Of a stretch of 64,000 nt of DNA, positions 1,086 through 44,111 are shown in pieces. A program made the position numbers and the translations under genes. Source of the DNA: Dendrobates tinctorius (taxonomy: Eukaryota); assembly GCF_039654945.1 (NCBI RefSeq), contig NW_027361679.1, positions 101,742,001 through 101,806,000 on the forward strand, written 5' to 3'. The notes beneath the pieces are model-generated. The model saw only the letters and a list, made by a program, of their open reading frames with translations, ran no database searches and was not told the DNA's origin. How positions within the stretch are numbered: the stretch's first letter is position 1; each line of letters begins with the position of its first letter.

Positions 1086-3928
1086 CTATGAATTTGTTCT
1101 GAGAAACAGTATCGCCTTCATCACATCCTCCATCATAGATTACCTCAAATCTGACCTAATTATTTTAAGGTTAGAGAACAACCTCTCTACACTAACTTGG
1201 GTTCATTGCAAAACAGTAACCACATGGGCAACATCTCTAACAATTTCAGGGTATAAAGGAAAGGCCTCTTGCACAGTCAGTTTTGATGAGCGATTAAACT
1301 CTTCTACGTCTTTGAGAGCAAGTGAAAAATTTTGCTGAAATATAGTCAATCTGTTTTCTATGGGAGTGGAATCTTTTTCCCTGTGGCAACGCTTTGCCTG
1401 CTCCATGTAGTCCAAATACTTTTCGAAATCAAATTCCTCATCTGATGAGGATGAAGAAATGGCGGCTGTGGTGAGCTCTCTTGATCTGACTTTTGAGGCA
1501 AGGCTCCCTCTGGTGGATACTGCTGGTAGTGGTGCTGGTCAACATGATGTTAACCTAACAGCTGCAGAATATAATTGGAGGAGTGGTGGTAGTGACTGGG
1601 ACTACATAAGTGAGCATACTTCTCTCAGTGACTGCCGGTGATACTCCTTTCTCTGCTTACTGAGGATTTCTGTCTGCTGCCTGATCCTGCGTTTTTTAAG
1701 CTAAGTGTCACTTGCTAAACCCTTTGCATCTGTTTTTGCCTTGCTGTCAGGGGTCAGCTTGCTCCCCCTGGGGCTGCTGGCTCCTGTCCTGTATTTTTGT
1801 ATTTTGTGTTTGTTTGCTCAGTCCCCGGCTGTATTAGCCTGTTGCTAGCCGCCAGTTCACACCTGAGTGCTGATATAGTAGGGGCGAGGTTGTTCAAACC
1901 TCAGTATTTTTGTACATCAGTCGTGTTGGATTTATTAGGGTTTTTGCATGATTGCAGACAGTGCCTTTTCTGTCCTGTCCTATCTAGTCAGTGTGGGCCC
2001 ATCATTTGCTCAGTCTATTTTCTGTCTGGGTTTGTGCTTCATCTTGTCTCACCGACAATATATGTTTGGGGGCTGTCTATTCCTTTGGGGATCTGCTCCG
2101 CGGTAGTTTAGATTTCACCTTTCTGTCTTTAGGCTTAGTTAGTCTTCCGGCTGTGACAAGGCATCTAGGGCAACATAGGAACGCTCCACGGCTACTGCTA
2201 GTTGTGTTTTTAAGATCAGGGGTCTGCAATCCGCTGAGTGACCAACCTCTCTGGTGTTCTGGTGGCATAGCCTATTGCGCTCTCCTCCTCGGTGACCCAT
2301 TCATAAAAGGCGGCAGCAGCACTGGCAGGACCCGAGTCCTCTTGCTCTTGGCCGTCCTGTAGCCCACTCATCCTAACTGTTACCTCAATCAGAGCTTTTT
2401 TCCTTTAGTAAGCTGTTGATCATCCAGCAATATACGATGACTCAGGTCCACAGAAACAGCTGCCAGAAGAATTTTATTTTCTAATAACAGTGTCTCTCTC
2501 CGTTTCATTGAAGCAACAATGCAATGTGCTATTAAACCTCCTCTTCGGGACAGGCAAAACAACAAGTTCTTCCACTCCTTTACGAAAATGCCAGGAGTTA
2601 AGTCCTCAGCTTGTAACTTTTTAGTCACTGTAAATGGTGATGAAGCAATTCCTTCAATTCAGCCACCTGTGTCCATTGACCTTCAAGTAGTGTTAACTGA
2701 GGGTTGGCCATATCTACAAGGAAGGGTTTCAGCTCAAGCAATTGCTCAATCATTAAATAGTTGCTGCCCCACCGAGTGGCTTGATCCATAATTGCCCCTT
2801 TTCCCGCATGTGTCCTCAAGATGGAATCAATTTTAGGGGTTCTGGCAGCAATAGCCAATTTCCTCACTTTGCTAATCAGAGTTCCAGCATGTCCCTCTTG
2901 CAGATTATCTTTTATTGCCAGCTGCAGCGTGTGCACAACTCAGGGCATGTGATGAACAGGAAAGAGGTGTAAAGCAGCTTCAACAAGATCATCTAATTGT
3001 AAAGAATAATTTTGCTGTTCTTCTGTAGTGATATCTGTTTGTTGCTCCGTTATGGGAACAGGACTGTGGCCTTTCATCTCCAACATACTGAATGTGAAAT
3101 ATTCTTCTAGCTGCTGTTCACCTTCATTATTCTCATTCATCAGTTTAATTGTACTTATGTTTGAAGCATTATCAGTTACAATTACAAGAACCTGTTCTTT
3201 TTTGAGTTCATACTCTTGCAGAACTTTTTCCACTAAGGTCTGGAGAAACTGACTGCTGTGATGAACTTTAGTATCTTTTTCTGCTAGCATCTTAGTAACA
3301 GTTTTTTTGTTGTCATAAACATATCGAATGTTGATAGCAAAATAGTTCACTCTGTGACATGTGCAGGCATCCAGTTTAAGAAACACAAAGCGTCTCTTGA
3401 GAGTCTTTTTAAGATCTTCCTTTTAGTTAAGGGCTTCTTCAATCACTAATTTTCTAATACTTTCTCTTTCCAGAGAAGCACCAAGTTTGGGGGCCATTTC
3501 TCCATTAAGAGCTGTAAAAGCTGGTCATGCAAATAATGATAATGGTACACTGTCCTTCACAACAAGCTCGATGAGCTGTCTTTTAAACACATCTACTGTC
3601 ATTGTTACAGTAACTTTGTCATTTACAGTACAAAATATCTTGTTACTGATGTTTGAGATGCTCTTTCCTCCTCCTTGGCCTGGTAGGAAGTGCTGGTCTA
3701 CGGTTTCTTGGTGGTCCTGAGATCTTTTTCAATCACAGCTTTGTAAACTTCTGGGTTGCAGCGTTGTAAATGTCTTTTTAGATTCGAAGCTATTGAAGGA
3801 GCATTTTTATCACTGCCTGAGTATGCACTGATTTTGGCATCACAGCATTTGTTTTAAAAAAAATTTTTATCTTGAGTCACTGTGAAATGCTCATATACAG
3901 CTGACTTCATAGGATGCTTCTTAGACAT
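1086..3928 (-). pseudogene. hAT transposase (BED finger, RNase H DDE core, C-terminal dimerisation domain), frameshifted
   Basis: MSKKHPMKSAVYEHF..SNLKRHL (BED-like); FLKLDACT..IVTDNASN; VHTLQLAIKD; DQATRWGS; TQVSVERLFSNLKIIRSDLR..ILFLRTNS*. Confidence 0.88.
1467..2308. mobile_element. Solo LTR inserted in the hAT transposase
   Basis: Ends TGTGGTGA...TCATAAAA (decayed TG..CA). Direct repeat GGCGGC at 1461-1466 and 2309-2314. hAT coding sequence resumes on both sides. Confidence 0.7.
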
Positions 3929-4788
3929 TTTGTAATTATGTAAATTCACTCTCAAAATAATTTTGTCCTGTAAAACAATAAGGTATATTGTAATTCTTGC
4001 AAGAATAGGGAATCATGCACTGCATAATTAAGGATAGAAATAAAACAATCTTTTCATAAATCAATAGGACAGGATGATAAGTGTAAAGTTTGTAAAATAT
4101 GTTGTTAGATAGCTTTACCCTGAATTTTCAGTGTCAGACTTTTCTCAGGGTACATCTCACTAAATGCTTCACATCATATTTCTTCACATGCTATGAAGAG
4201 GGGAGGAGGGAGGGAGCAAGTTTGTGCTGAATCATATTCCAGAACACACACACAAAAAAATAAATATGTCCTCATCGATTCTGTTACTGTGTTTCTGAAT
4301 TTGAGAGGTTAGAAAACAGTTTTTCCCCTTATATTCTATGTATAGTGTATATAAGTCATCAGAGCAGCTAATTTCTGCAAACATGAGCTAAGAGGAAAAA
4401 CAAACTAAAACATCAAGCATACTGAGACAACATTTACTGGACTATTGATTTATGCACAGTTTATTGAAAGTTAATCCTGCTTTCCTGTTCACTCCAGAAG
4501 TTTTGAGATGAATGCAGGCATTCCTTCCCTGTGTGTTATTTTTCCCCTTATCTGTAGAGGAGGAGCTTCACTACAGATCATGAACATAAACTGCAGCACA
4601 TATTCATCTCAGCTAAAAGTCTAGACCTTAGATTAGGAATAGGACAGACAATTATAGGACATTTCTTAACTTTCCCTAATTCTTATGAAAAAAATATTCC
4701 CCACAAACTGCATTGAACTATTGTACCCAATTTATTATATATTTTAGGAGTGGGAGTTGGTCCATTTTATACCGACTCCACAGCCCTG

Positions 4789-5820
4789 CCAGGAACCGCC
4801 CTAGCCGTCCCCCTACTCTCATGGGGTCACTTTCTACCTGAGCCTCAACCAAAAATGGAGGTCTTACCCCTACCTCTCTTGGGGTAACTCCATCTGCCCA
4901 TTTTTCCTTTCCCCTTATAGCCCGATTTTTGGCTAGGTTGGGGCCTACGAAAGGGCTGATAATTCTTTGGTTTCTCCTCAGAGAACCCCTTATTTTGTCT
5001 GATGCCTTTTCTAGAATATCATCCAGAAAAGGCCCAAACACTATTACCCGAGAAGGGAATAGAACTGAGCTTACTTTTGGACTGAGTGTCCCCGACCAAG
5101 TCTTTAACCAGATAGCCATTTGGGCAGCATTGGACAAAGACCCATTCATGGCTGTGAATTGTACAGATTCTGCCGATGTGTCAGCCATGAAACCAGTCTC
5201 CAGTTTCAGGAGGGGAAAGGATTTTAGGATCGTGTCCCTGGGAGTCTTAGATCTCAAATGTTCCTCTAAGTCGTCAACCCATAAGTGCATGGACCAAGCC
5301 ACCGAGGTTGCCACGATATTGGCTCGGACTATGGCTGCCGAGGTTTCCCAGGTTCTTTTAAGGAAACCATTCGCCTTCCGGTCTATGGGTTCTTTCAACC
5401 TAGAGGAATCTTCAAATGGGATGAAGTTCTCTTCGCCACTTTGGCTACCGGAACGTCTATCTAGGGGATGTCTTCCCAGGCTTTGATATCTTCTGGCTCA
5501 AAGGGTAAGCGGAGCTTAAAGTCTCTCGGCATGACCAGTCTTTTTTCTGCATCCTCCCATTCCTCCATGATCATAGAACAAATGTGGCTGTTGACCGTGA
5601 ACACTCTACTTCTCTGGGATCGTAACCCCCCAATCATCTCGTCCTGTATGGAGAGGGGTTTTGGGGTTTCCTCCACCTGCATGGTATCTCGTGCCGCACG
5701 AAGGAGTTTGTCCGAGTCGTCGGAGGAAAAGAGGTACTGCTTCCCTCCCTCTGGTGGGTCAGTAAAGACTTTCCCTTCCTCCTGGTCGGATTCATCCGAT
5801 ATCTCATCTTCAGAGGACAT
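4789..5820 (-). pseudogene. DIRS ORF1 (gag-like) remnant
   Basis: ORF track 4718..5398 KEPIDRKANGFLKRTWE..AESVQFTA..SNAAQMAIWLKTWSG and 5461..5820 resemble vertebrate DIRS ORF1; frameshifted. Confidence 0.75.
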
Positions 5821-6524
5821 TTTTATCTCCCTTGGTCTTTTACGGGACCCTTCCTGGGATTAGGATTGTGAGGTATGAGAGTATACTATCCCGTAAATTG
5901 ATGCCTGGACCTCCTCTCTTATTATAGACCTCATGTCTGAAAGCAAAGAAGTCTGTTCTTCTCTGATGATTTTCAAAGTGCAGGGTTCACATAGGTGTTT
6001 CTGCCAGGTCTCTGGAAGTTTGGCGTTACAGATAATACATCATTTAACTCTCCCTTACTTTTTGTTATCCTTCTTTGGAGTTGCCGAGGTGGTGTTTCTC
6101 CATAGATTACACAGAGTATATGCCATGTGTTTCCAAGTGTAGGGTAAGGGCTAAAGTGGGTGATGCTTTGCAAGCTTATTCACATGTCCCTGGCTTTGTG
6201 ACAAGCCAATGTCTGAGCCGAGAGTCCCCAGGCAGGGGAAAGCGGCTCACAACTCAGAAGCAGCGCTTCACTGAGGTAGGCTGAGGGACCCCCCATCGGA
6301 GGGTGTCGGCCGCAGATCGCTTGATAGCAGGAAGCAAAAGGCTGGGTCCCCCTGATCCACGCTGATCTGCCCGATGCAGCCAGGGATAGGAGCTTCCTCT
6401 TGTCGTTCCTATCCTCATTGGGACAGGAAAAAACACTGAGGGGGTGGAGATGGGAGGGTCCTTTTAATCTCTCGTTGTTTCCTGTCCCAATGAGGATAAG
6501 GACGTCATCCATGGTGCTGTCAGG

Positions 6525-7368
6525 ATTGGTGAACTGGAAAAGTTCTATTTTGGTCTCATTTGACCACTTGACCTTTTCCCATGCCTCCTCTGGATCATCC
6601 AGATGGTCATTAGTGAACTTTAACTGGGACAGGACATGTGCTGGCATAAGCAGGGGCCCTTGCGTTCCCTGCTGGATTTTAATACATGATGGTGTAGCGT
6701 GTTACTAATGGTAATGTTTGAGACTGTGGTCCCAGCTCTCTTCAGGTCATTGACTAGGTCACCCCATGTAGTTCTGGGCTGATTCCTGATTTTTCTCAGT
6801 ATCATCCATATCCCACCAAGCGAGATATTGAACCCCAGACGGAGGAAGATTGATAGTCATCTTGTGTTTCTTCCATTTTCTAATAAATGTGCCAACAGTT
6901 GTTGCTTTCTCACCAAGCTGTTTGCCTATTGTCCTGTAGCCCATCCCAGCCTTGTACAAGTCTACAATTTTGTCCCTGTGTGTCCTTAGACAGCTGTTTC
7001 ATTTTGGCCATGGTGGAGAGGTTGGAGTGTGATTGATTGTGTGGACAGGTGTCTTTTAGACAGGTAACGAGAGCAATTAATACAGGTAATGAACGCAGAG
7101 TAGGAGGGCTTCTCAAAAAAAAAACTAACAGGTCTGTGAAAGCCAGAATTCTTGCTGGTTGGTATGTGATCAAATACTTATTTAATGCAATAAAATGCAA
7201 AATAATTATGCAAAATTCATACAATGTGATTTTCTGTTGTTTTTTTTTTAAGATTCTGTCCCTCACAATTGAAGTGTACCTACGATAAAAATTACAGACT
7301 TTTCCATTCTTTATAGGTGGGAAAACTAACAAAATTGTCAGTGTATCAAATACTTATTTTCCCCACTG
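6525..7368 (-). mobile_element. Tc1-like transposon, truncated (one TIR plus transposase N-half)
   Basis: TIR CAGTGGGGAAAATAAGTATTTGA with flanking TA at 7369-7370. [27 protein letters not shown]..; WEKVKWSNETKIELF. Confidence 0.88.
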
Positions 7369-7811
7369 TATATATCTTATAAATACTGTAGCCCACACAG
7401 AGAAATGTATTGGATGAGCCAGAAAAATATATATCAACCTGACACAATCAATATACCAACAATCAATATAAAAATAAGTCTATGCGTATATATTTCTCAA
7501 AGCAATGTCTCCTCCTTGTGGGGTAGTTAAAAATAACATCAGTATATCTGAACAAAGTTATCTCACATCTGTACAGATTCAGTAGCTAATAGACCCAGTT
7601 AATATATTTTAATATAGGTGTATAGAATGCTTCCCAAAAATGTGTTGAATGCATGTCAGCACCAGACGTTAAGTAGACATTATAACCATAAGAGAAACTA
7701 AGTCAGACATGATTGAAAAGAAAAAGCACAAAACAGTTACCACCACACGTTTTGTACTATGGATTTCTCATTTTTGCAAACTCCTTGTAACATGTATGAC
7801 TTTTCTTTAAG

Positions 7812-7980
7812 GGTGGGTTTCCTCCGGGTACTCCGGTTTCCTCCTACATTCCAAAGACATACTGATAGGGAATTTAGATTGTGAGCCCCAGCCGGGACAG
7901 TGATGATGATAATGTCTGCAAACTGTAAAGCGCTGCGGAATATGTTAGCGCTATATAAAAATAAAGATTATTTATTATTA
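7812..7980 (+). mobile_element. V-SINE, 5'-truncated
   Basis: V-domain GGGTTTCCTCCGGGTACTCCGGTTTCCTCC..TCCAAAGACAT followed by L2-like tail GTAAAGCGCTGCGGAATATGTTAGCGCTATATAAA and (TTA)n. Confidence 0.8.
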
Positions 7981-8096
7981 AGGGGAATTGAAACCCCAGT
8001 CTGCTTTGAAATCTGTGCCAAGGAGAGACCTTGCTGATGCAGCATAAATACAGATAAATGAACAGGAACATCATTTTAACCTGACACAATAACTTG

Positions 8097-9225
8097 CCGC
8101 AATGCCAGCCTCCCCTCACTCATGGAGCAGGTTCCAGACCTCCTGCTCCCTGGCCTTTTTCTTCCGGATGACATCCGCGACCCAAACGGAGGGTCTGGTG
8201 TAGGCCCCGGAGTCCAGTGGGCGGGACACAGCCAGGGTTGAGAGCGGGGCAGAGGCGGCCGTAGATGTCGGTGGCCCAGCAGCCGTTGGGGCCGGGCGGC
8301 GGATAGGGGCATCCGTGATTCCTGGCAGATGGGCCGCAGAGCCTGACAAGCAGGCCGCGGCCAACTCCGGTGGTGACGCATATGCGGCCGCGGGGCAGGC
8401 TGCAACCGGAGTCGCAGACAGGGCCGAAGCGGCGGCCGGCTTCAAGGGACAGGCCGCTGCTGGCAGGTGGAACGCAGCAGCGTCAGCCACGGACTGGCTC
8501 CGCACTGGCGACACTGGACGTGGCGCCGCCGGGCGGGGTGGCTCGGGGACGGGAGCAGGGGCATCGCTCAGCCCGGCGGAGGCCGCAGAGCCCTCCACAG
8601 CCGGGAATCCTGGAGCGCAGGAGGCCGCGCAGTGCGGCCGGATGGTGGGGGCCACTTGCGGAGCTGCCGGCAGAGCCGGGGGAACTCTCACCTTCCCCGG
8701 CGCCACGGTCTCCGACACGTCATCCCGCAACTCCTCCCTCAGCCTCCATTCTTCACCCCGCCGTCCGGCAGGGCCAGCCTCCGGGCTCGGGGATCCTGCA
8801 GGGAGGCTCCCCGGTGATGTATTCAGCGGCCGCTCCCGCGGGGTCCGCCGTCGCTCCTCTTCTCCGCCCGTAGTCTGGAGGACTGTCCGTGACTACAAGA
8901 AGCAGGTCTTCCAGCGAGACTCGATCTCCCGACGCGATTGCCACTCCAGGCGTCCGAGGCCATGGCAACTGCAGCGTCGCATCCCGTCCGGTGGGCAACA
9001 GTCGAATGGCGCGAAGCAGCCGCAGCCGACCTTCTCTCCCTGACCACTCCTGCTCCTGGGTGGGACGGTGGCCGACTTCTCCACCCAGTTGCCCGGGTCC
9101 AGTATGAGGGGTGGCGGCCTCCAGACACACCACTCCCCCCAGGGGTACATTGGAGGGGGCCACAGTCTGTCCAGAACGACTGTAAATGCCCAGGACTCTT
9201 CCCAGCGCTGAAGTACCACCGCCAT
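8097..9225 (-). pseudogene. LTR-element ORF copy A (Cys cluster plus Pro/Ala-rich region), truncated just before the cold-shock domain
   Basis: ATG at 9225 in AATATGG context. ORFs 8893..9321 and 8116..8730 are in the same frame, separated by a TAG where copy B has GAG. TGA at 8116 corresponds to AGA in copy B. Confidence 0.75.
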
Positions 9226-10165
9226 ATTGGACGGAATCTGGTGCCGCCCCGGATCGACTGATGGCAGCGATGATCCGGAACAACGTCCCCAATTTATAAT
9301 CCACCGGTGTTTGTAATCCACAGGTATTTGTAATCCACAGGGGAGCAGTCCAAGTCCTTCTAGTTTCTCCAGACGCAGGCCTGCCGCGGAAGGTGTCGTA
9401 TTAGCGGCGGCGAACCTGCCGACTACGCCAAATGTGGTAGGGGCCGGGGATGGGGGTTGGACCGCTGCTTACCAGACGAGGCAAAGACGAGACAGAGACA
9501 GAATCCAGTTGTAACAGTTCCAGGTTTATTTCGTCATCCTCCTGATGACCACTGTCACGCACCGCAGCCACTTTACAATTCTCTGTTTCTAGGCCCGGGT
9601 ACCTTTTCACCTTTCCCTTTAGTAGTGTTAGCGTCCCTCGTGGATCTTTCACTGGGGCTGTCCTAGACCAATCTACCGCCAGCGCTTCACCTGTCCGAGA
9701 TCGCCGTCCAGTCGGTACTCCCGGGGCCTCACTTGTTCTGCGGTACGTCACCTCGCCTGTCCTGCGATACGTCGTGTCAGGGCCACCCCCCTGACTGTCC
9801 TCTCCTGTCAGTCCCCTGGCCAAGCTTTCTCCGTTCTCTGTCTTCTGACTTCCTCTGCTAAGCTCCTCCCAGGACTGACCACTCTGGAACCCCAACCACT
9901 CCTACTTATCCCCTCTCTCACCGGGAATTCCCCTCCTGGGTTCCTATCTCCCCGCCCCCCATGACTGTGCGTTTCTCGAGCCATAAGCCGTTGTTAAGTC
10001 CAAAGCTACTCTCCATTGCCATCTTGTGGTCATTTCTCGGTACTGCACTCTCCTATCTCCCTTTCCTAGCTGTCACCCTTCTAACCTGTCAATCTCTGTC
10101 TCTAGTGCATAAACCGTCCCCGCCTACTACCAGTCAAGTCTGTCCGTCAAGTCACCTTCCCCACA
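8097..10165 (-). mobile_element. Non-autonomous LTR retroelement, copy A (5' LTR 9433-10165, PBS, ORF; 3' part deleted)
   Basis: LTR TGTGGGGAAGG...TACCACA on minus strand. PBS TGGCGTAGTCGGCAGG at 9415-9430. Same right flank (CCTGCTAAGAGGAGG) as copy B. Confidence 0.88.
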
Positions 10166-10564
10166 CCTGCTAAGAGGAGGAGCTGACACACCTCCTTCCC
10201 TGCCTGATAGCTGCTCCTCTAATGCCCTGCAGTACAGAAGCATAGCAAGTATCAGATCAGTGATCTGTCACTATACAGTGATGTCCCATCCTGGGACAAT
10301 GTAAAAAAATTAAAAAAAAGTTATTACAAAATAAAAAAAACTAATATAAAGAACAAAAATAAAGAAAAAATATTATTACAATAATTACATTTATTTATGT
10401 AAAAAAAAAGTACACGGATTTGGTATCGTCTCTTTTGGAACGTTCCAACCTGCAAACTGTCCCACTAGTTAACCCTGTCAGTGAACACCGTAAAAAATAG
10501 GCAAAAATATGCTTAATAATCATATTGCCGAATCAAAAGTGCAATAAAACATGATCAGAAAGAC

Positions 10565-12336
10565 CAGTGGCGGATTAAGTGGACCATGGGCCCGGGGCTG
10601 TTCATAAAACCTGGGCCCTAGTACCCCCCTTCCCAGCAAAACATTTTCTGTAAAAATTTTGTGGCTCTTCTCACAAAAACACTGCATATGCTGATTTTTA
10701 GGTATACAAATTGTAACATTTATTACACCATAAAAACAAAGAAAAATTACTTTTTTCTCACAAGAAATTGTATTGTATGGTCAAACAATATAAATAATAT
10801 TAAATATTCCTCAAAATCATCAGTCAAAATATATAATGTGGTATATACTGGCCTGTATTTCTTCATACAAGGTAAACATAAGGCTACATTCACCGTACCA
10901 CATGTAAGTGCAAATAAGAACATGTAAACATAATATTAAACAATAATTCAACATAATTATTTATCTATACAGATGTATATCTGTGTGGGTGGTAGCCTAA
11001 CAGGAAAAGTGCAATGAGCACAGGCAACAATTTCTTAATGGACTAGAAACGTGGATTTTTTTTGACACTGAAGATCATAAACTGCTCACAGACTTTTTCG
11101 GCGAGATTTTTTGGTGCTAAAGTCGTTGATGATTTCTGAGAGGTCTAGACTCTTCAAAAGCTCTTGTTCAATGCTCATTAAAGAGAGATGATTGAGTCTG
11201 TCTTGTCCCATTTGACTCCTCAACTCATTTTTAATTCGTTTAAGTTTTGAAAAGAATCTCTCACCTGTGCAGTTTGAATCCATCATGCATAAATACAGCT
11301 AGCTGAGCGCTGCGGTCCCCGTGCGGGAATTGACAGCCGTACGGACCGCAGCACTTGGTTTGCTGCAGGTCCGTACGGAAAACCCGCCACCATTCCGCCA
11401 CGTGTGGACATGGCCTAAAAAGACGTTGCACATAAGCTGTAGGCCTACGGCCAATACGCACAAAATCGCCCAACGTGAACCTGGCCATAGGGGACGTGAT
11501 GTGAGGACCTGAATGGGTTACGTTACATAATGCGTGCAGTGCACTGCTTACTGGCCCGAGGCTGTTCCTAAAGTCTGGGCACCTGGCACCCCTCTTGACC
11601 AAGGCCCCCCCCCTGCCCACCCCCCCATGCCCCCAACCACCACATAAAGTAGGTGAGAGAAAGATGTGGTAGGCAACTAAGGGCTAAAACACGTGTGCCG
11701 GCGATCAAGGACGGAGGCCCAGATGTTATGAGGTGTACTCTTAGAGGGTAATCATCAATAGGCAGGAAATGTACATTCAGTTTATAATGTTTAATGAGCA
11801 ATCAACATAGGGCTAAAATACATGTATAACAAAGAGTGTTTTTCCCCACATCCACATGAGTCAGTCATGACATACCTCCGCCCCACCCTGCTGCGACTTA
11901 CCCCCAAGTTCGGAAAGGTGAGGAACAGGCAGTGCTGCTGCTGCAACACTGTCCACCAGGCACCAGAGAGTTCTTCTTCCTCCTGTGATACACGGCGTCG
12001 GCTGGGCTGTCAGTTGCCGGGCCCCGCTGTATCTATGGACACCAACGAAGGGGAGGGAACAGAGGAGCCGCTGCCAGAGTGTGAGTGGCCAGTGTCACTC
12101 TGATGCAGCCACGTGATGTCAGTTGCTGGCCGGAATGAGCGCGGACGCTGCGGAGAGAGGGGAGGAGGATCAGGTGACTGAGCCAGCCATTCAGCGCAAC
12201 GCAGCCGCCGACAATTGCTGCGACACGCGACTATTGGGGGAAGCCAAAATTGCGCTGCGGCGGCTCCAGATTGGCCCCCAAAAAACCTTGGGCCCGGGGC
12301 GACCGCCCCATCCGCCCCAATTAAGATCCGCCACCG
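10565..12336 (-). mobile_element. Internally deleted hAT transposon (Tip100/Charlie-like C-terminus), present only in copy A
   Basis: TIRs CAGTGGCGGAT / ATCCGCCACCG. Perfect 8-bp TSD AGAAAGAC (10557-10564, 12337-12344), single copy at the empty site ~29620. ORF 11086..11286 NCTGERFFSKLKRIKNELRSQMGQDRLNHLSLMSIE is the hAT dimerisation domain. Confidence 0.92.
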
Positions 12337-12638
12337 AGAAAGACGACTATAAATAAAAATGGCATCGCTGAAAACTGTCTTGTCCCACAAAAAACAAGTC
12401 CCCACAAAGTTCCGTCAGCAGAAAATTAAAAAAGTTATAGCTCTCAGAATAAATCAATGTAAAAATAATTATATTTTCTATAAAATAGTTTTTATTGTGT
12501 AAAAGTGCCAAAACATAAAAAACATGATATTAATGAGGTATTGCTATAATCATACTGACCTGAAGAATAAAGCTGCCTTATAGATTTTACCACACTCAGA
12601 ATGGTATAAAAAAAAAAAAAAAATTCCTAAATTGCTGG

Positions 12639-15600
12639 GGGTTTTTTTTTTTCAGTAAATATATTTATTAAAGTTTTAAACAGTAAAAGCATGTCCAAGG
12701 CTAAACATTAAATCTCTGTAAAAGCAGCACACTTATAGCCAAACAAGGACTCAGGCATATATAGGATACATGCTTGCTATCTTGAGAAACATCTCAAGAT
12801 ATGAACCTTATAACCTGTAAGAAAAGCAGTTATAGAGATAGAAGAAGAAGGAAAGCAAGATAAAAAGAGAAGAGAGAGAAAAAAAAAAAAAAAAGGGGGG
12901 GGTGGAATAGGAAAAAAGGGGAGTAGGGAGGGAGAGGGTTAAAGGGGACCCAATAGCATCAGTGTCCACGTATTGGGGGTTGTGAATATGTACGTAGCCA
13001 GTTCAGGAACCCCGCGCTCTCCTTGAAGGATTGCCAGAGGAACCAGGTGCGCCCCTGTTCACATGCAACACCACCGTCACCACCGCCACCCACCACCATT
13101 GACTCCAGACGATGAAGTCTCTCCATTTCAGATATCCATTCCTCCGTGGAGGGAACCTCAGTGGACCTCCAATGCCAAGGAATAACCGCTCTGGCAGCCG
13201 TTAAACAGAATCTTAGAATCCCCTTTTTAACCGAAGCTATCGAATTGGGAATCAGGGACAGTAGGGCAATTTTGGGGGAGGGCTCATGGCAGACCCCAGT
13301 CATCAGATGAAAGGCATCAAACACTGAGCTCCAGAAGGGTTGCAGGAGACCACAGGACCACCAAACATGAAGCATAGAGCCTGCAGCGGATCCACATCTC
13401 CAACAGGCATCCGGGGTCTCCGGGTTAATCCTATGGAGAAGTGTGGGACATCTACACCAGCGCGTCAGCAATTTATAATTCCTCTCCTGCGACTGACTGG
13501 ACATTGTCATCTTATGTGCAAGAGTGAAAATTTTTAAACTATCCGCCTCAGAAAAGGTGATCCCCAGGTCCCTCTCCCAAGCCTCCATGAAGCCGAGTGT
13601 AGTAGAGGGAAGTGAGTTGAAGACCAGGCCATAGAGCACCGAAACCACATGAGAGGGACCCTCGGTAGGGAGCATCAGAGACTCAAATGGCGTCGGCGCC
13701 CCTAATGGTATACTGAGAAGAAAGCTCCGCAATTGCAGAAACTCCAGCCAGGACAGCGGCGCCGTTCGATCAGGGCCCCGCAACCCCCGCACATCGGAGA
13801 GCCCCGCAAGTTTATCCCTCACCTGACCCAGTACCACCTCGTCAGGTCGCGACCAACACAAAAACGTAGATCTATTCATTGCTGGGGGAAAGGCCGGATT
13901 GTCAAAAAGGGGACTCAATCTGCTCAATTGAGAAGTCAGGCGTAATTTCACGTAGGCTCTGTCCCAGAACCTCAGATCAACCTGTGTGAGTGGAGCATAA
14001 CTTGACACAGGCGGGCGTCCGATTCCCCCCCAGCCAAGGTACCAATACAAAGAAGAGGGCGATAAAAGTTTCTCCAAGAACACCCACTGTTTATGAGCAT
14101 CGCCAAACCTCCAATCGACTATCCTAGAGAGCAAGACTGCCTGATAATAACGTTTAAAATCAGGGAGGCCTACCCCCCCTTTAGTCTTGGGTCTCACTAG
14201 TACCGAGAACCGAGTCCGCGGTTTCCTAGTTCCCCAAATAAAGCTATTGATAGCCGATTGCAGGCGCCTGAAAAAGCAATCCGGGACCTGCACTGGAGCC
14301 ATCTGAAAAAGATAGAGGAATCGGGGCAAGATTTCCATCTTGATCTCTCCTACCCGTCCGAACCAAGATAGCTGAGGTCTGCTATATCGTTTAAGGTCCA
14401 AGATAGTTTTCCGCAGGAGCGGGACATAGTTCAGAGCATATGTTGGGTTAATGTCAGCAGGTATTAAGACTCCTAAATATTTCAAGGCGGCCGTCTTCCA
14501 CTTAAAAGAAAAGGACGTCTGGAGCTGAGAAACCAGATCATTAGGCAAGGAGATATTGAGCGCCTCCGTCTTGGAGTAGTTAACTTTAAAATTTGAGACC
14601 TCCCCGAACCTACGGAACTCTCGGAGAAGTACAGGAAAGGCCACAGTCGGGTTGGTAATGTATAGCAGTAAGTCATCCGCATATAGGGATATCTTAAACT
14701 CATGTTGACCAATCCGCAAACCCTCAATATCGGGTGTCTTCCGTAATGCCACTGCTAGGTGCTCCATCGCGAGGATATAGAGTAAAGGAGAGAGGGGGCA
14801 ACCCTGTCGGGTCCCGTTCCTTATATTAATGGGCAGGGAGAGGGTGCCATTAACTCTGAGACGGGCTGTAGGTCTATGATATAGAGCAAAAATCCTCTCC
14901 ATCATATTAGGACCCACTCCTAGTTGCTGCAGAGAAGCACGCAGAAAGGGCCAACCTAGGCGGTCAAACGCCTTCTCAGCGTCAATGGATAATAAGCATG
15001 CTGGTACCTTTCCTGTGCGCATGTACGAAGTCAGAAGCAACATCTTCACCGTGTTATCCCTGGCCTCCCTGTGAGGCACAAAGCCCACCTGATCATTATG
15101 GATGGACCCAGGGAGAACAGGGTTCAGTCTACCAGCTAACACTTTCGCGAACACCTTCACATCTACATTAATAAGGGATATGGGCCTATAACTTGCACAT
15201 AATAGGGGATCTTTACCCAGTTTAGGAATCACGGTGATTGTAGCTATCAGCGTTTGGGGGGCAAAGGGACAGCTGGCCGAGATAGAATTAAACAGTTTGA
15301 TCATGAAGGGGACCAGGGAGTTTGCAAACAATTTATAAAAGGCAGCGGAAAATCCATCCGGGCCAGGACTCTTACCATTAGCTAAGGATTTTATTGTGTC
15401 GAGAACCTCCTGCTCTGAAAGAGGGCTCTCCAGGGTCTCAGAATCCTCCACCGACATAGGCGGGAGCCCAGTATCCCGGATGTAATCATCCACCCGTGCT
15501 TGAAACTCGGGGGGAGACATATCAGACAACGGGCCATTTAAATTATAAAGAGAGTCCTAATATGCTCTGAACCAGTCCACAATCTCCCCAGGAAAATGGA

Positions 15601-17608
15601 CCAGTTCACCCGTAGCAGATCTCATGGTAGGAATATAAGTGGTAGGGGCACGGGGATGCAGAAACCTCGCCAGGGCTCTCCCAGGTTTATCAGAATATTT
15701 GTACAAAAATTTACGGAAGCGGTCCCTCTGTCGTGCTAACGTCGCGTCTAACAAGGTGCTCAACTCACAGCGCGCCCGGAGGAGATCAGTCAGCACACCA
15801 GCATCTCTAGTCCGTTTATGGTCCGTCTCCAAAGCTTGGACACGAGTCAACAAACCCATTATATTAGTTTCCCTCTCTCTTTTCAGTCTGGCCCCTTTTT
15901 TATAAATACCCCCCGTATGACTCCTTTCAAAGCTTCCCATTGATACGGAATAGCCGTAGGGTCGTGTTTGTGAAAATCTAGAAAGTCCGAGATTGCTGTT
16001 CGCACGGCCGCCTGACACGTTAGCCCCACAAGGAGACCAGGATTTAAGGACCAGGTCCATTCCTTCGGAACGAGACTCGGCAACCGCAGGGACGCAGGGA
16101 GAGCAAGACCGGGGCATGGTCCGACCATAACATCGTGTCGATGTCGGACCTAGGGTCAAAAGACAGGAGCCCGTGGCTGATCAAAAAATAATCTAATCTA
16201 CTGTAGGAATTGTGTATTGTGGAAAAATAGGTATAATCCCGGGCAGTGGGGTGCAGTAACCTCCAGACATCCACCAACTTTGAGTCTGACAGGGCCCGAC
16301 GTAGTCTCTCCATCTGCGAGGGGGACACCGCTGACCTGCCCGAAGAGGAATCCATAGCGCGGTCCAACACCATATTGAAGTCCCCTCCCATGATCACGTA
16401 GCCCTCCGCAAAAGCCGATAGGTCCCGCAAGTACTTTCTGCATGCTCGGACCTGGTCTTGATTGGGGAGATAAATGTTAGCTATGGTGAACAGATCGTGG
16501 GCGATTTTAAGCTTCAGAAACACATATCGACCACCAGAATCCGTCTTAGAGGCGACAACCTGAGCCTGTAGAGACTTATGTAATGCAATACTGACTCCTT
16601 TAGACTTGGAATCAGAATTACTTCCATGGAACCACTGTGTGTCGTATTTATGGCTAAGCGTAGGAATTCTGTCTGATCGGAAATGCATCTCCTGCAGCAG
16701 AAGTATGTCAACCCGTTGCTTATGCATACTGTATAGAACCTTCGATCGCTTTTCGGGGACATTAAACCCCCTGACATTAAGTGAGCAGAGTTGTAGGGAT
16801 GCCATATGAACTATCGGGCCCACAGGTGGCACAATCAGGTCAGGGAGGAGTAGGGGGGTGGGTAGTGGGAAGAGATAGAGATAGTAAAAGTAAAGCACCA
16901 AGGAAAGAGAGTAGTTCAGCCAGAGGACAATGAACCGACAGAAAAGAAAAAAGAAATAAAGGGAAGACCAAGAGGTCACTAGACCTCTGGTGTAAAGGAC
17001 AATATCAGAGAAAACTCTGAGAAGTAGTGTCACAGACACACCCTAGTGGGGAGGTGATTGGGCTAAGAGCAAGCAGCCAACAGCCAAGCCCCTGCAGCAA
17101 AAAAAAAAAAAAAAAGAAATCCAAACTCCACCCCATAGGTCTGTAGACCTGTCAATATAAACAATATTAACAAATACAACAGGACAAGTCATAAACCAGA
17201 TACTTTTGCAGAAGTGAACACAGTCGGAGCGGGTCTCCGAAGGGGCATCTCCGAGTGCTAAATTTAGGAGAAAGAGTAGCGTTAGTCAGCCTAGGATATA
17301 AATAGTGGAATTATAAAGTAATACAACAGATAAGCACGTCATTTGGGGTGCCCATCGGAGTAGGAAACCATTCATAAACAGTGTAAAATAGGCTATGCTG
17401 GGAGCTCCGTTAAAGAGTCCCAGATAGAATCTGATGAAAATGAAACCGCTACCAAACATATGGCTCCAGTCCCCCTGCATTAATCAAACTTGAGCAAAGT
17501 TACGACCAGACTCCTCTTGGGAGCCCGACAATATGCCGGGGTACTGCAGGAGGAACAAAAGAGACAATAGAAAACATATAATCTAGGATAGATGATCAAG
17601 TGTCGTCG
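12639..17608 (-). mobile_element. L1-clade LINE, 5'-truncated (no ORF1), present only in copy A
   Basis: TSD AAATTGCTGG (12629-12638, 17609-17618). Poly(A) (T-run 12642-12652) preceded by AATAAA. Empty site at ~29913. Confidence 0.92.
12959..16805 (-). pseudogene. L1 ORF2: APE endonuclease, RT and C-terminal CCHC; frameshifted between EN and RT; 856-aa RT part open
   Basis: MASLQLCSLNVRG..LLQE..GGDFN..SRLDYF..SDHAPV (EN); KSPGPDGF, YRPISLIN, IDAEKAFD, GTRQGCPLSPLL, LYADD (RT); CWRC..HVWWSC. Confidence 0.93.
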
Positions 17609-17932
17609 AAATTGCTGGTTTTTGTTCATTCTACATTTGAATCAGGCCCGGATTGGTAATATAACCAACCGGGCATTTTCCCGCTGGGCCGCTGTCATGT
17701 GGGCCGCTGGCGGCAGCACCTGCTCATCTGGCCGCTTGCCAGCTGATGCAGCCACTGGTCTGGCTGTTGCTCCTGCCACCGGCCCTCTGCGGGCACGGCG
17801 GTTATAGTTTCCAACCCTCCCGCACTGCAGGGAGATAAGCCGCCACCCCCCCACGCACCCCATCCTCGCCGTAGCATGAGACCTCCCCACCGCAGCCACC
17901 CACTGCATTGCTTGCCTGCTCTCTTCTCTGTT

Positions 17933-18060
17933 CACAGGACCTGTGATGAGGTCACAGGAGGGGAGGAGTCAGGGGTCACATGATCAGGAGCCTTTGTCCA
18001 GACCCCTGATCATGTGACCCCTGACTTTCTCCCTCCTGTGACCTCATCACAGGTCCTGTG
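17933..18060. repeat. Near-perfect palindrome, ~56-bp arms (second copy ~30258-30385)
   Basis: CACAGGACCTGTGATGAGGTCACAGGAGGG..GGGGTCACATGATCAGG, spacer, CCTGATCATGTGACCCC..CCCTCCTGTGACCTCATCACAGGTCCTGTG. Confidence 0.9.
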
Positions 18061-18174
18061 CGCTCAGCCTTGCCTCTTGGTGTCTGTAAGACTCTGCTGT
18101 GCTGTTGTCATGGTGCTGGATGAGGTAAGTATGTGTGGGGACAGGAGGGGTTTACAGGGTAGATGCAGCAGAGC

Positions 18175-19175
18175 TGTGTGTGTATGAGGTGTATGGAGAG
18201 GAGCCGTGTGTGTACGAGGTGTATGGAGCGGAGCCATGTGTGTACGAGGTGTACGGAACGGAGCCATGTGTGTACAAGGTGTACGGAGCGGAGCCGTGTA
18301 CGAGGTGTACGGAGCGGAGTCATGTGTGTACGAGGTGTATGGAGAGGAGCCGTGTGTGTATGAGGTGTACGGAACAGAGCCGCGTGTACGAGGTGTACGG
18401 AGCGGAGCCGTGTGTACGAGGTGTACGGAGCGGAGCCGCGCGTGTACGAGGTGTACGGAGCGGAGTCGTGTGTGTACGAGATGTATGGAGAGGAGCCATG
18501 GGTGTATGAGGTGTACAGAACAGAGCTGCGTGTACGAGATGTAGGGCGTAGCCGTGTGTACGAGGTGTATGGAGCGGAGCCAGGCGTGTACGAGGTGTAT
18601 GGAGCGGAGCCGCGCGTGTACCAGGTGTAAGGAGCGGAGCCGCGCGTGTACCAGGTGTACGGAGCGGAGCCGCGCGTGTACCAGGTGTACGGAGCGGAGC
18701 CGCGCATGTACCAGGTGTACGGAGCGGAGCCGCGCGTGTACGAGGTGTACGGAGCGGAGCCGTATTTGTACAAGGTGTATGGAGAGAAGCCATGTGTGTT
18801 TGAGGTGTACGGAACGGACACGCGCGTGTACGAGGTGTACGGAACGGAGCCGCGCGTAAGAGGTGTACGGAACGGAACCGCGCGTACAAGGTTACGGAGC
18901 GGAGCTGCGTGTACGAGGTGTACGGAGCGTAGCCGCCCGTGTACGAGGTGTACGGAGAGGAGCCGTGCGTGTACGAGGTGTATGGAGCGGAGTCATGTGT
19001 ACGAGGTTACGGAGCGGTGCCGCGTGTGTACGAGGTGTACGGAGTGGAGCCGTGTGTGTACTCGGTGTACGGAGCGGAGCCGCGTGTGTAAGGGGTATAC
19101 AGAGCGGAGCTGTGTGTACGGAGTGGAGCCATACGTGTACGGGATGTACGGAGCGGAGCCAAGTGTGTACGAAGC
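18175..19175. repeat. Minisatellite, ~30-bp unit GTGTGTACGAGGTGTACGGAGCGGAGCCGC
   Basis: Directly visible tandem array with 26-30 bp variants. Confidence 0.95.
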
Positions 19176-20740
19176 ATACAAAGTGGGCTTTTCCCACGGA
19201 CACAGGAGTACATGGCGGAGCCCCGAGGAGCATTTTAAAACACACACATGAAGTTCCACCTGAAGTGATGTGCTGGAAGCTGACCGGAAATGAGATAATT
19301 TCTTGAGGAGATTGTGAAAGAACCAGGAATGCTTCAGATCCATCACCGTGTCCTCCTCCGACAGCGCAGACAGCAGGATCGCCTTGGAATCGGGGATGCC
19401 GGCCATGTGAGCGGATCATGATATGTCCTGCACCGGGAGGCTCAGGTGGGCACTATAATGGGATCCGGGCTGCTATAGTATCTTTATAGAATCTTTCGTT
19501 ATTTCTTTTTCTCTTTTTCTTTATTTCTCTGTTCTTTCTTTCTCATTCTCTGTTCTGTCTTTCCCTCATTTTCTTTCTCTCTCTCTGTTCTTTNNNNNNN
19601 NNNNNNNNNNNNNNNNNNNNNNNNNNNNNNNNNNNNNNNNNNNNNNNNNNNNNNNNNNNNNNNNNNNNNNNNNNNNNNNNNNNNNNNNNNNNNNNNNNNN
19701 NNNNNNNNNNNNNNNNNNNNNTCTCTGATCTTTCTCTGTTCTTTCTTTCTTTCCCCTCTTTCTTTCCCTCTGTTCTTTCATCTTTCTCTCTCTGTTCTTT
19801 CTTTCTCGCTCTCCTTTCTTTCTCTCTCTTTTTTCTCTCTCTCTGTTTTCTCTCTTCCTTAGTGTCAGTCAGTGTGCCCATAATGCCAGCCACTGTGCCC
19901 TCAGTACCAGTCAGTGTGATCAGCAGTGCTAAATGGGTGCGATTAGGCGTGGACATGGGTGTGACTAGTTGCGAAATGGATGTGGCCGGGGCGTGGCCCA
20001 AATTTGCAGCGGAGCGTGCAGCGCGCCGCAGTCTTTGTCCCTCTTTCCCTTCTTCAAAAGTTGGGAGGTATGATAGGGGCAGCTATGACCAGGGGGTCTG
20101 CTTGCCCAATGGATAGCAGTTCTGCCAGGAATTCTGTCACCGTGTGTACAAAAGGGGACAGAGCTTTGGGAGGAGTACTGTACCTAAAAGCAATAAATAG
20201 GACTGAGCTGAAATACTGGGCACAGCTCTGACTACATGTTATATAGTCGTGTTAATCTCCTCTCACTTCTTGTAACCTACAAGTGTACAAAGATATTATA
20301 TAGTCACCATGTGACTAGTGGGCCTGTGTAACTTCAAATGCCAGGGCTGAATTTTAGTCCCAGTCCGGCCCTGATTACAATGGTATAAGTTGAACAGAGC
20401 AGGTCAGATATGACCTTGGTCAGATTTGACATCACTTGAAGTGACATCTTTAAAGTGATACATGAGAAATATACCAGAAATAGTCCAGAAATCGGTCAGA
20501 CGGTAAGACTAACCACTGCATTCCTACTTTACTTGCTCACATTTGCCATCACCGTTTTTGCTCCACTAATCTTCACTCTCCTTCGCTATCCCCAAACCCC
20601 TGCACCCTTGAACCAAATAACTATCTCCCCCTCTCTCTTACCCCCACCTCACTTTATCTGCAGACATACTCCTTAACCTCAGACCTCTCCTACTAAGATA
20701 CAATACAAGACGATCACTCTCCTTCACCTAACTGCTTTCC

Positions 20741-20791
20741 CTTTCTCTGCTTCTTCTCACTGCTGGTGACATATCCCCCAACCCTGGCCCC
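20741..20791 (+). other. 2A-like (StopGo) peptide upstream of the L2 endonuclease, LSLLLLTAGDISPNPGP
   Basis: Translation CTT TCT CTG CTT CTT CTC ACT GCT GGT GAC ATA TCC CCC AAC CCT GGC CCC; identical in copy B at 32821-32871. Confidence 0.8.
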
Positions 20792-22557
20792 CCCTGCCTC
20801 ATACATCCCACTAATCCTCACCCCTATCTTTCTCACACTAAGAGAAACTACCGCAATCCCTCAAACTTAAAACCTGTGCCACTGACCCCCTCCCTCCCGC
20901 ACCCTCTTTCTGGAGCACTTTGGAATGCTCGCTCCATCTGCAACAAGCTCCAGGTGATCCACAACCTCTTTACCTTTCCTTCCTGGCCCTCACTGAGACC
21001 TGGCTGACACCCCCTGACACGGCCTCCCCGGCCGCACTGAGTTATGGTGGCCTCCACTTTACCCACACTCCTCGCCCTGGCAACAGACATGGTGGAGGAG
21101 TGGGTTTCCTCCTTTCTAAAAACTGCTCCTTCAACCCTATCCAACCCCCACCCTCCCTTATCCTCCCTTCTTTTGAGGTTCACTCTGTCCGTATTTACTC
21201 TCCCTCTAATCTCCAAATGGCTGTCATATACCAACCACCGGGCTCAGCCACTGCCTTCATCAACCAATTCTCCATCTGGCTCCTCCACTTTCTCTCTTCT
21301 GACATCCCCACCATCATCATGAGGGACTTCAACATCCCCATTGACACCCACCAGCTAGCAGCCTCCAAATTACTGTCAATTACCTCATCCTTTGGACTTA
21401 CTCAGTGGTTATCCACAGCCACCCACACAGATGGACATACATTAGACCTCATCTTCACCCGCCTCTGTTCCCTATCTAATCTCGTAACCTCTCCCTTCCC
21501 CCTATCTGACCACCATCGACTCACCTTCTTATCCTTGTCCTTCTCACCTGCCCCCCATGTCCAGCCACTAGAACATCATCGCAGAAACCTCGCACACCTA
21601 GACATTCAGACTCTCAGACTCTCTTTTACCTCTGTTCTCCATATCTTCACTCCACAACACAGACAGTGCCACCGCTTTCTACAACGCCACCCTCACATCA
21701 GCCATAGACTCAGTCGTCCCTCTCATGCATGGCAAAGCGCAACAAACCAATAGACAACCCTGGCATAACAACCTCACCAAAATATTTTGACAAGCATCCA
21801 GGGTCGCGGAGGGGTGTTGGAAGAAAACACGCTTGCCAGATGACTTCACTGCTTTCAAACATGCTACACTTGCCTTTAAATCAGCCCTCACCTCTGCTAA
21901 ACAGACCTATTTCTCAAACCTTGTATCTTCATTATCCCACAACCCAAAACAACTGTTCAGCACATTTAACTCTCCTCCACCCACCACTGCCACCTCCAAC
22001 TACCCTCATCTCTGCTGAGGACTTTGTCACCTACTTCAAAAACAAGATCGACCAAACAAGGAAAACCTTTACAGTTCCACCACCCTAACCACTCCACATA
22101 CCAGACCTCTGCCCTTCCCTAATAACCTCCCTCTCCAACATCACTGAAGGAGAGCTTACTTATCTCCTTTCCAAATCACACCTCACCACCTGTGCACTTG
22201 ACCCCATCCTTTCCCACCTGCTCCTCAACCTCACTAACATGATCATTCCAGCTCTAACACATCTCTTCAACCTATTCCTAACTTCTGGTACCTTCCCCTC
22301 TGCCATCAAACATGCCACCATAACACCCATCCTCAAAAAATCAAACTCTGACCCAACTGCTATGCCCAGCTTTCGCCCAATATCACTGCTCCCGTTTGCT
22401 TCCAAACTCCTTGAACAGCATGTCCATGCTCAACTTTCCTCCCACCTCTCATCTAACTTCCTCCTTGACATCCTGCAATCTGGCTTCCGCCCCCACCACT
22501 CCACTGAAACTGCCCTGACCAAAATTACTAATGACTTACTCACAGTCAAAGCTAACA

Positions 22558-24211
22558 TAGAATCATAGAATCATAGAATCATAGAATCGTAGAGTTGGAA
22601 GGGACCTCCTGGGCCATCTGGTCCAACCCCCTGCTCAAAGCAGGATTCGCTAAATCATCCCAGTCAGATGTCTGTCCAGCCTCTGTTTGAAGACTTCCAT
22701 TGAAGGAGAACTCACCACTTCTCGTGGCAGCCTGTTCCACTCATTGATCACTCTAACTGTCAAAAAGTTTTTTCTAATATCTAATCTGTGTCTCCTCCCA
22801 TTCAGTTTCATCCCATTGCTTCTAGTCTTTCCTTGTGCAAATGAGAATAAAGTTGATCCTTCTACAATGTGACAGCCCTTTAGATATTTGTAGACAGCAA
22901 TTAAGTCTCCTCTCAGTCTTCTCTTTTGCAAACTAAACATTCCCAAATCCTGCAACCTTTCCTCATAAGACAGGGTTTGCAGACCGGTCACCATTCTGGT
23001 CGCTCTTTTCTGAACTTGCTCCAGTTTGTTGATGTGTTTTTTAAAATGTGGTGCCCAAAACTGGACACAATATTCCAGATGAGGTCTGACCAAAGAGGAG
23101 TAGAGGGAAATAATGACTTCACGTGATCTAGACTGTATGCTTCTGTTAATACATCCTAGAACTGCATTTGCCTTTTTTGCTGCTGCATCACACTGTTGAC
23201 TCATATTCAGTCTGTGATCTATTAGTATACCCAAGTCTTTTTCACATGTGCTGTCACTTAGCCCTATTCCTCCCATTCTATATATGCTTTTTTCATTTTT
23301 ATTGCCCAGATGTAGTACTTTGCATTTCTCCCTGTTAAAAACCATTCTGTTAGTTACTGCCCACTTCTCCAGTTTATTTAAATCTTTTTGAATCCTCTCT
23401 CTCTCTTCTCTAGTATTAGCTATCCCTCCTAGCTTTGTGTCATCAGCAAATTTAATCAGTTTACCCTCAATTCCTTCATCTAAATCGTTGATAAAGATGT
23501 TGAACAATACAGGGCCCAGGACAGAGCCCTGTGGTACCCCACTTGAGACATTCTTCCAACTGGATGTGCAGCCATTTACGACCACTCTTTGGGTCCGATC
23601 ACTAAGCCAGCTATGAATCCACCTAACAGTTGCCTTGTCCATTCCATACTTAGTCATTTTTTCAATAAGGATTGTATGAGAGACTTTGTCAAATGCTTTG
23701 CTGAAGTCAAGATATACTATATCTACAGCATTTCCTTGATCCACCCAATCAGTGATACCGTCATAGAAGGAAATTAAGTTAGTCTGACATGACTTATTAG
23801 TTACAAACCCATGCTGACTCTGTTTGATCACTTCATTCTTATCCAGGTATTGACTTACATGTTGTTTAATAATTTGTTCAAAGATCTTTCCTGGTATAGA
23901 AGTCAGACTCACCGGCCTATAGTTGCCTGGGTCCACCTTCTTCTCCTTTTTGAAGATAGGAACAACATTTGCTCTTCTCCAGTCTTCTGGCACTTCTCCT
24001 GTTCTCCAAGAATTTTCAAAGATTATGGAGAGTGGTTCAGAAATTTCTTCTGCTATCTCCTTCAGTACTCTGGGGTGTAATTCATCTGGACCTGGAGACT
24101 TGAATTCATTTAGGTTAGCTAAGTGTTTCCTCACTATCTTTCTGTTTATAGATATCCTGGATTCTTCTATTCCCTTAATAGGACAGTGAATAACAGTTGG
24201 TGTTACATTTC
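22558..24211 (-). mobile_element. CR1 LINE, 5'-truncated and young, inserted antisense into L2 copy A
   Basis: (ATTCTATG)n 3' tail at ~22556-22592. TSD CTAACA (22552-22557, 24212-24217). Empty site at ~34601. Confidence 0.93.
22650..24211 (-). CDS. CR1 ORF2 reverse-transcriptase portion, uninterrupted
   Basis: [70 protein letters not shown]; no internal stops. Confidence 0.92.
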
Positions 24212-44053: not shown

Positions 44054-44111
44054 GACTAAGTCACATGTAGGTCCATCCCAGCTGCTGCTCCTCAGAAAAA
44101 ACCTACAGGCA

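Follow-up and report, generated by a model that had tools for sequence, protein, structure and literature searches.

Non-autonomous LTR elements and captured cold-shock domains

LTR elements without pol, such as TRIM, LARD, and Helenus/Ajax elements, carry two LTRs, a primer-binding site (PBS), a polypurine tract (PPT), and target site duplications (TSDs) and are presumed to depend on a helper, as is the family described here. LARDs are noncoding and TR-GAG elements encode Gag, and the usual non-autonomous LTR elements are either noncoding or Gag-only. TRIMs are under 1 kb in length and encode no protein for their mobilization (PMC10886601). Cold-shock domains (CSDs) have been captured repeatedly by bird endogenous retroviruses (ERVs), with 46 such ERVs reported (PMC12287698). 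Here, we describe a family of LTR elements whose only long open reading frame (ORF) ends in a CSD, starting from two copies (A and B) in a 64,000-nucleotide stretch of the Dendrobates tinctorius genome (GCF_039654945.1, contig NW_027361679.1, positions 101,742,001 to 101,806,000 of the forward strand), which is referred to as the window and is numbered from its first letter.

Two copies in the window derive from one insertion

Both copies lie on the minus strand. Copy A has a 5' LTR with TG..CA ends (9433 to 10165), which were mapped on the window from the paired LTRs of other copies, a PBS complementary to the 3' end of tRNA-Ser(AGA) (9415 to 9430), and an ORF (8096 to 9225) that starts at the ATG at 9225 and is cut at 8096, before the CSD. 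As the original prediction stated, one frame runs from this ATG with exactly two in-frame stops (8893 to 8895 and 8116 to 8118), and neither stop is present at the corresponding codons of copy B. Copy B has a 5' LTR (28502 to 29228) that is 97.2% identical to that of copy A, a tRNA-Ser PBS (28482 to 28499), and an ORF (27005 to 28294) that starts at the ATG at 28294 and keeps the basic helix, the CSD, and the stop codon (27005 to 27007). It is followed by a 3' internal region (26124 to 27004) with neither a long ORF nor a gag/pol relic, a PPT (26110 to 26123) directly 5' of the 3' LTR, as in other copies, and a 3' LTR (25988 to 26109) that is 95% identical to the 5' LTRs and truncated after about 120 bp. 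The copy B ORF has lost 1 nt near 28175 and 65 nt near 27650. The loss of the CSD from copy A and the deletion near 27650 in copy B, with its CSD and stop retained, are thus as originally described.

The two copies had been read as carrying complementary, non-overlapping lesions in an ORF that was intact when the element inserted. A and B share a 1-nt loss near codon 38, so their lesions do overlap. Compared with other copies, copy A has additionally lost 2 nt, and it keeps a single frame because the two losses compensate each other (a double frameshift near 9131 to 9110); the 2-nt insertion once assigned to copy B near 28190 is, against other copies, this 2-nt loss in A. Nor are the copies independent. 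Their 5' flanks (10166 to 10564 and 29229 to 29627) are 95.4% identical over 391 aligned bases, and both copies lie in a tandem duplication (8096 to 25574 and 27228 to 35951, 86 to 95% identity). Because of this common flank and their position in the duplication, A and B are one insertion that was duplicated in tandem, with three later insertions (10565 to 12336, 12639 to 17608, and 22558 to 24211) in the first unit.

The donor of this insertion was probably already broken. L002, an insertion with different flanks, carries the same 1-nt loss, and seven substitutions are unique to the trio A, B, and L002, compared with at most one when any other copy is taken as the third. The shared loss and substitutions in an independent insertion therefore indicate that the donor was probably frameshifted, and the claim of an ORF intact at insertion is probably false for A and B. 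Alternatively, repeated slippage in a C run or gene conversion may account for the common 1-nt loss. The copy A frame contains 2 stops, compared with 7.7 in shuffled sequences (P = 0.018, or 0.04 for the best of three frames). Because this frame alone is only marginally beyond chance, the reality of the ORF rests on the evidence from the family. Copies A and B are dead, and the interest lies in the family.

The window also contains other repeats. The insertion at 10565 to 12336 has short terminal inverted repeats and an 8-bp target duplication, and we take it to be hAT-like. LINE fragments with endonuclease and reverse transcriptase (RT) domains are present at 12639 to 17608, 20842 to 24986, and 32533 to 33855. 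On the minus strand, a 514-aa frame without a Pfam match (42719 to 44263) reads, in our assessment, like a Penelope-type RT end with a GIY-YIG endonuclease, and another frame without a Pfam match (4718 to 5497) resembles a DIRS-type gag. An interstitial telomere-like hexamer array lies at 50348 to 50720.

Structure, age, and copy number of the element family

The family consists of LTR elements of about 3.9 kb (range, 3.4 to 4.5 kb) with paired 700- to 800-bp LTRs ending in TG..CA, a short T spacer followed by the PBS, and a PPT. The PBS is complementary to tRNA-Ser(AGA), and a pattern built from it lands on a tRNA-Ser(AGA) gene in one of six loci scanned. Among 20 loci, 12 of the 13 two-ended copies have a 4-bp TSD with at most one mismatch, and none has a TSD of 5 or 6 bp. 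The internal region contains one long ORF, in which the CSD is the only Pfam match, and no retroviral gag, pol, or env. This ORF lies directly 3' of the PBS, at the gag position, with its ATG about 200 nt past the PBS. Using Gag/Pol queries of local Gypsy elements, taken from 4 of 20 control loci, tblastn at an E value of 0.05 found matches in all 20 controls and in none of 35 family internal regions (median, 2.46 kb). The family is therefore neither a TRIM (under 1 kb and without a protein), given its length and its selected ORF, nor an autonomous Ty3/Gypsy element, which has a gag with a capsid domain and the order protease (PR)-RT-RNase H (RH)-integrase (IN). It is no ERV either, and in its mode of propagation it resembles a non-autonomous Ty3/Gypsy derivative.

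Copies fall into the subfamily of the window (S1) and a second subfamily (S2). On the basis of partial LTRs, LTR pairs are 88 to 96% alike in S1 and 93 to 99.6% alike in S2, and the young S2 copies, in which the similarity of the LTR pair reaches 99.6%, lack pol and have an open ORF. With a substitution rate of 2.5e-9, as used previously (PMC11152451), insertion ages are roughly 8 to 24 My for S1 and about 1 to 2 My for the youngest S2 copies. Two young copies, L105 and L109, lie 3.2 kb apart, apparently head to tail with one common LTR. First-look searches of the genome returned 3,158 to 19,904 candidates, which are unscored and are not copy numbers. All scored candidates matched (150/150 out of 7,108 candidates and 97/97 out of 19,904), and judged from these matches the family is high-copy in the frog genome. 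The closest database protein, a D. tinctorius "uncharacterized protein," is an S2 copy.

The ORF is intact in natural copies and under purifying selection

The ORF of about 450 aa that had been rebuilt by merging A and B is found unmerged in a natural copy, L026, whose 451-aa frame is unbroken and shares both its ATG and its stop with the window ORF. Of 87 loci fetched, 12 were dropped as the same place or tandem neighbors and 17 for not containing both ORF ends, and A and B were added to give 60 rows. The ORF is open in 23 of these 60 copies, namely, 1 of 32 in S1 and 22 of 28 in S2, whose rows were selected on protein score, which favors open frames. A protein search for S2 gave 73 stop-free rows out of 97.

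The ATG corresponding to 9225 had been proposed as the start, and this start is common across the subfamilies; in 22 of 58 copies, the upstream leader is in a different frame. Only 9 of 58 copies (young S2 copies, e.g., L095 and L104 to L106) have an ATG in frame with the ORF that overlaps the PBS and would add 64 residues. Given this count and the out-of-frame leaders, an N-terminal extension from this ATG was rejected as the general start. In addition, an in-frame internal ATG just before the last CxC motif could still yield the helix and the CSD.

Selection was estimated from pairwise dN/dS between 31 S1 and 28 S2 rows, net of within-group divergence. The values are 0.07 (0.03 to 0.15) for the CSD, 0.11 for the basic helix, 0.18 for the Cys cluster, 0.46 for the N terminus, 0.71 for the linker, and 0.38 for the whole ORF. 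The other sense frames of the whole ORF give 0.9 to 1.3, and one antisense frame gives 0.54, an expected shadow; for the linker, other frames give values similar to its 0.7. After the removal of CpG-touching codons (15 x 10 rows), the CSD, helix, and Cys cluster kept their values, and the interval for the N terminus then included 1. The CSD dN/dS is 0.17 among S2 copies and 0.06 in a second CSD family (16 copies). Three indels are fixed between S1 and S2, all of them multiples of three, whereas 50 of 71 indel events within S1 shift the frame. The protein of about 450 aa is the real product of the element and is under purifying selection. Between S1 and S2, dS is 1.1 to 2.4 in the Cys cluster, helix, and CSD (near saturation in the CSD), compared with 0.5 to 0.6 in the N terminus and linker, and this uneven dS along the ORF may reflect a mosaic history or an RNA-level constraint.

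Domains of the encoded protein

The Trp-rich N terminus, Cys cluster, Pro/Ala linker, and basic helix described in the original prediction are all present. In copy A, the Cys cluster (8965 to 9024, minus strand) reads CxC-x5-CC-x7-CxC and lies inside an N-terminal Trp/Cys domain of no known family, which recurs in other tRNA-Ser families. This domain has no match among local Gypsy Gag and zinc-knuckle profiles (probability, 0.2 to 0.4%) or in Pfam, PDB, or Atlas, and the Gag/capsid identity implied for it was abandoned together with a zinc-knuckle origin. A predicted model of the full-length protein has low confidence (pLDDT of 35, and below 50 for residues 1 to 370, from a shallow alignment).

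The C-terminal part is modeled with confidence. The last 106 residues of copy B are predicted to form a long helix and an OB barrel (pLDDT of 84). The helix corresponds to the basic helix at 27257 to 27316 (minus strand; pLDDT of 82 to 86), whose equivalent in copy A lies at 8125 to 8184 (minus strand), and the barrel corresponds to the CSD at 27029 to 27217 (minus strand; Pfam CSD E value of 8.6e-5), for which a five-stranded OB fold is predicted. The top Foldseek matches of the model are CSDs (root mean square deviation, 1.5 to 2 Å), with YB-1 and bacterial CSDs level, and a search of a viral fold library returned only generic phage and giant-virus CSDs. The window copy scores 22.8 bits against Pfam CSD (PF00313), below the cut-off of 27, whereas other members of the wider group of related CSD loci, the clan described below, score 39 to 42 bits. 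In the window family, RNP1 is kept (KGYGFI), RNP2 is VYIN instead of the VFVH of Y-box proteins, and the long loop of the CSD, present in 13 of 18 aligned clan rows, is about 7 residues shorter. Past the CSD, the protein continues for only about 8 residues and has no charged C-terminal domain.

A clan of CSD elements with a probable Y-box origin

Searching the genome with the Pfam CSD profile yielded 5,472 candidates, and all 150 that were scored were above the cut-off. Of 30 CSD loci read, all but 3 are intronless CSD frames; by our own reading, these 3 resemble exons from a multi-CSD host gene. The CSD loci form at least six lineages; paired LTRs surround several of them (L193, L206, L208, L209, and L210), and a second PBS type is present, which we assume to be complementary to a tRNA-Ser as well. 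Four of six matches to related CSDs are in proteins labeled Ranitomeya variabilis, Ranitomeya imitator, and Phyllobates terribilis, and no relatives were found outside poison frogs in protein sets that are mostly repeat-masked. A protein library clustered at 50% gave one close match among 118 and no close match for the second family, and metagenome contigs gave two weak partial matches. The frog gene models P0121, P0125, and P0124 fuse clan CSDs with astacin/UVS.2-like genes, which happens in two genera, or a clan fragment with an MIF4G gene. These fusions are probably annotation chimeras, and their recurrence at UVS.2-like genes is odd.

The clan CSDs probably originate from a Y-box protein, as judged by sequence similarity, and for the window family we are less sure. 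L142, with the loop included, scores 52 bits against YBX1 and 30 bits against the best other CSD. It lies 1.7 kb behind an LTR homologous to that of the window family (E value of 8e-26), and this adjacency is its only link to the family because it is single-copy, has no visible PBS, and is separated from that LTR by another solo LTR. This intronless locus (L142/L203:4061-4552; G000:C214) is possibly the least diverged relic of the CSD capture. The clan profile also ranks YBX1 first, by a margin of about 1 bit. The CSD of the window family alone scores higher on non-YBX CSDs, and in a 71-column CSD tree without YBX rows it groups, without support, with protist and bacterial CSDs that have a short loop. 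The L206 type matches bacterial Csp only.

Candidate helpers

The same PBS pattern also finds Gypsy elements with a PNMA-type Gag, a zinc knuckle, and the order PR-RT-RH-IN (L171 to L190). Like the family, they have the tRNA-Ser PBS, which is identical, a TT spacer, TG..CA termini, and a G-rich PPT, with a 4-bp TSD at L184. They differ in their gag-PR-RT-RH-IN organization, in the lack of a CSD in all 20 loci, and in their LTRs and 3' regions, in which profile searches of the 20 loci detected no homology to the family. A tighter helper pattern occurs in three places, one family copy and two Gag-bearing loci. PNMA-Gag Gypsy elements are thus plausible mobilizers of the family in trans. Among them, L175, L176, and L178 are short two-LTR derivatives (about 3.1 to 3.3 kb from PBS to end) without a CSD. 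In Gmr1-like Gypsy elements, integrase lies upstream of RT; the candidates have RT-RH before IN, and a Gmr1-like helper was therefore rejected. L207, the sole locus with an RT next to a CSD, was also rejected as an autonomous CSD element, since its RT belongs to a nested, unrelated insertion with its own LTR.

A possible role of the protein and alternative explanations

We give an even chance to the reading that the family is an LTR element without gag and pol, likely moved by tRNA-Ser-primed Ty3/Gypsy helpers, whose sole gene encodes a selected and likely Y-box-derived RNA-binding protein that aids its own RNA. In such a cycle, the element would be transcribed from its LTR, the protein would be translated from the ATG about 200 nt past the PBS, and helper Gag-Pol would package and copy the element RNA in trans. 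The protein would bind RNA through the CSD and the basic helix and may favor its own template, because selection would not maintain the gene in a freeloader if every copy profited equally. A YB-1-like stabilizing or annealing activity could then raise the share of element RNA that is reverse transcribed in helper particles. YB-1 packages mRNA, stabilizes it, and helps strands to anneal (PMC7226217), and poison frog ova contain abundant Gypsy RNA (PMC6278860). On these grounds, the likeliest roles would be protection in germline mRNPs or chaperoning in the manner of a nucleocapsid. At least two insertions (A/B and L002) seem to stem from a frameshifted donor, which counts against a model in cis and indicates that the element does not strictly need the full-length product to be made in cis. 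The more specific reading, that this is an old, recently active satellite LTR clan of poison frogs whose Y-box-derived protein acts in cis in germline mRNP protection and the loading of helper particles, is held only tentatively, as somewhat short of an even chance. If it is true, the clan is a retroelement freeloader that has kept, under selection, a gene of host origin other than Gag and has diversified into at least six lineages with two tRNA-Ser primers.

The repeated insertion from a frameshifted donor, which apparently still transposed, would be easier to understand if the protein had its effect in trans, either on the host or on the helper, and were kept through co-expressed related copies. 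It might, for instance, regulate translation, sequester the partners of Y-box proteins as a decoy, or counter small-RNA silencing in oocytes. YB proteins control the translation and decay of maternal mRNA (PMC7226217), and the plentiful Gypsy RNA in poison frog ova (PMC6278860) would fit such a role. ORF-less derivatives should then win, yet the CSD has a dN/dS of 0.06 to 0.09 in two families and 22 of 28 S2 copies, picked by protein score and biased towards open frames, are open, and we regard a role in trans as rather unlikely. It is improbable that the CSD gene belongs, as an accessory gene, to some autonomous Gypsy lineage outside the sample, in which selection acted and from which the elements arose repeatedly by deletion of pol. 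CSDs do occur as extra domains in bird ERVs (PMC12287698), and the exact helper was not found among only 20 helper loci; against this, none of these loci has a CSD, none of 35 internal regions has a gag/pol relic, the ORF directly follows the PBS at the gag position, selection also acts among S2 copies (CSD dN/dS of 0.17), and the only RT next to a CSD is that of the nested element in L207.

The position of the ORF, together with the fact that 36 of 58 copies are in frame with the codon where the helper Gag ATG overlaps the PBS, raises the question of whether it is a highly diverged Gag with an N-terminal capsid and a CSD in place of the nucleocapsid knuckle, and the last CxC motif is, by eye, faintly like a decayed zinc knuckle. 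This is very unlikely, as there is no profile match to the helper Gag or knuckle, Pfam, or PDB, and the full-length model has no confident N-terminal fold (pLDDT below 50 for residues 1 to 370, from a shallow alignment). Only about 110 residues precede the low-complexity linker, and this is too few for a two-domain capsid. It is hardly credible that the frame stays open as a neutral passenger or simply because the sequence is GC-rich. The marginal frame of copy A and the linker, where other frames give a dN/dS similar to its 0.7, would agree with neutrality, but three domains, in two families, have frame-specific dN/dS values of 0.06 to 0.2, the fixed indels keep the frame, and the CSD fold is predicted with confidence. 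The dN/dS values refute neutrality for the Cys cluster, the helix, and the CSD. The reading that we prefer remains that of an enzyme-less element whose protein aids its own RNA: a gene kept at a dN/dS below 0.1 in such an element indicates that the element gains from having its own RNA-binding protein.

Comparison with known systems

The capture of CSDs by LTR elements has already been published for bird ERVs, and what appears to be new here is a CSD-only, enzyme-less clan, which we did not find in the literature. The literature search returned no CSD-only non-autonomous LTR element; it did not cover Repbase or Dfam, so an unnoticed library entry is quite possible. The main texts of frog genome papers (PMC6278860, PMC11152451, and PMC12822217), in the parts available to us, make no mention of a CSD. 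Some of the LTR sequence left unclassified in a poison frog assembly (PMC11152451) may belong to the clan, which also contaminates frog gene models. Considered alongside the bird ERVs, the clan points to repeated recruitment of CSDs by LTR retroelements. These elements also allow a direct test of how freeloaders gain access to packaging or avoid decay in the germline.

The protein resembles the Y-box proteins YBX1 and YBX2/FRGY2 in having one CSD behind an Ala/Pro-rich region and, in most clan members, the long loop. It differs from them in the added N-terminal Trp/Cys domain and basic helix, in the absence of the charged C-terminal domain, and, in the window family, in the short loop and changed RNP2. 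The bird CSD ERVs are retroviruses placed by their RT, and two rows of the supplement list near-canonical CSDs (E values of 1e-23 to 1e-25) in elements of 6.6 to 7.8 kb (PMC12287698), whereas in the frog family the CSD is diverged, forms the end of the sole gene, and is under long-term selection. Compared with TRIM, LARD, and TR-GAG elements, with which it shares the dependence on a presumed helper, the family is distinguished by a length of about 3.9 kb and by one selected gene that is not Gag.
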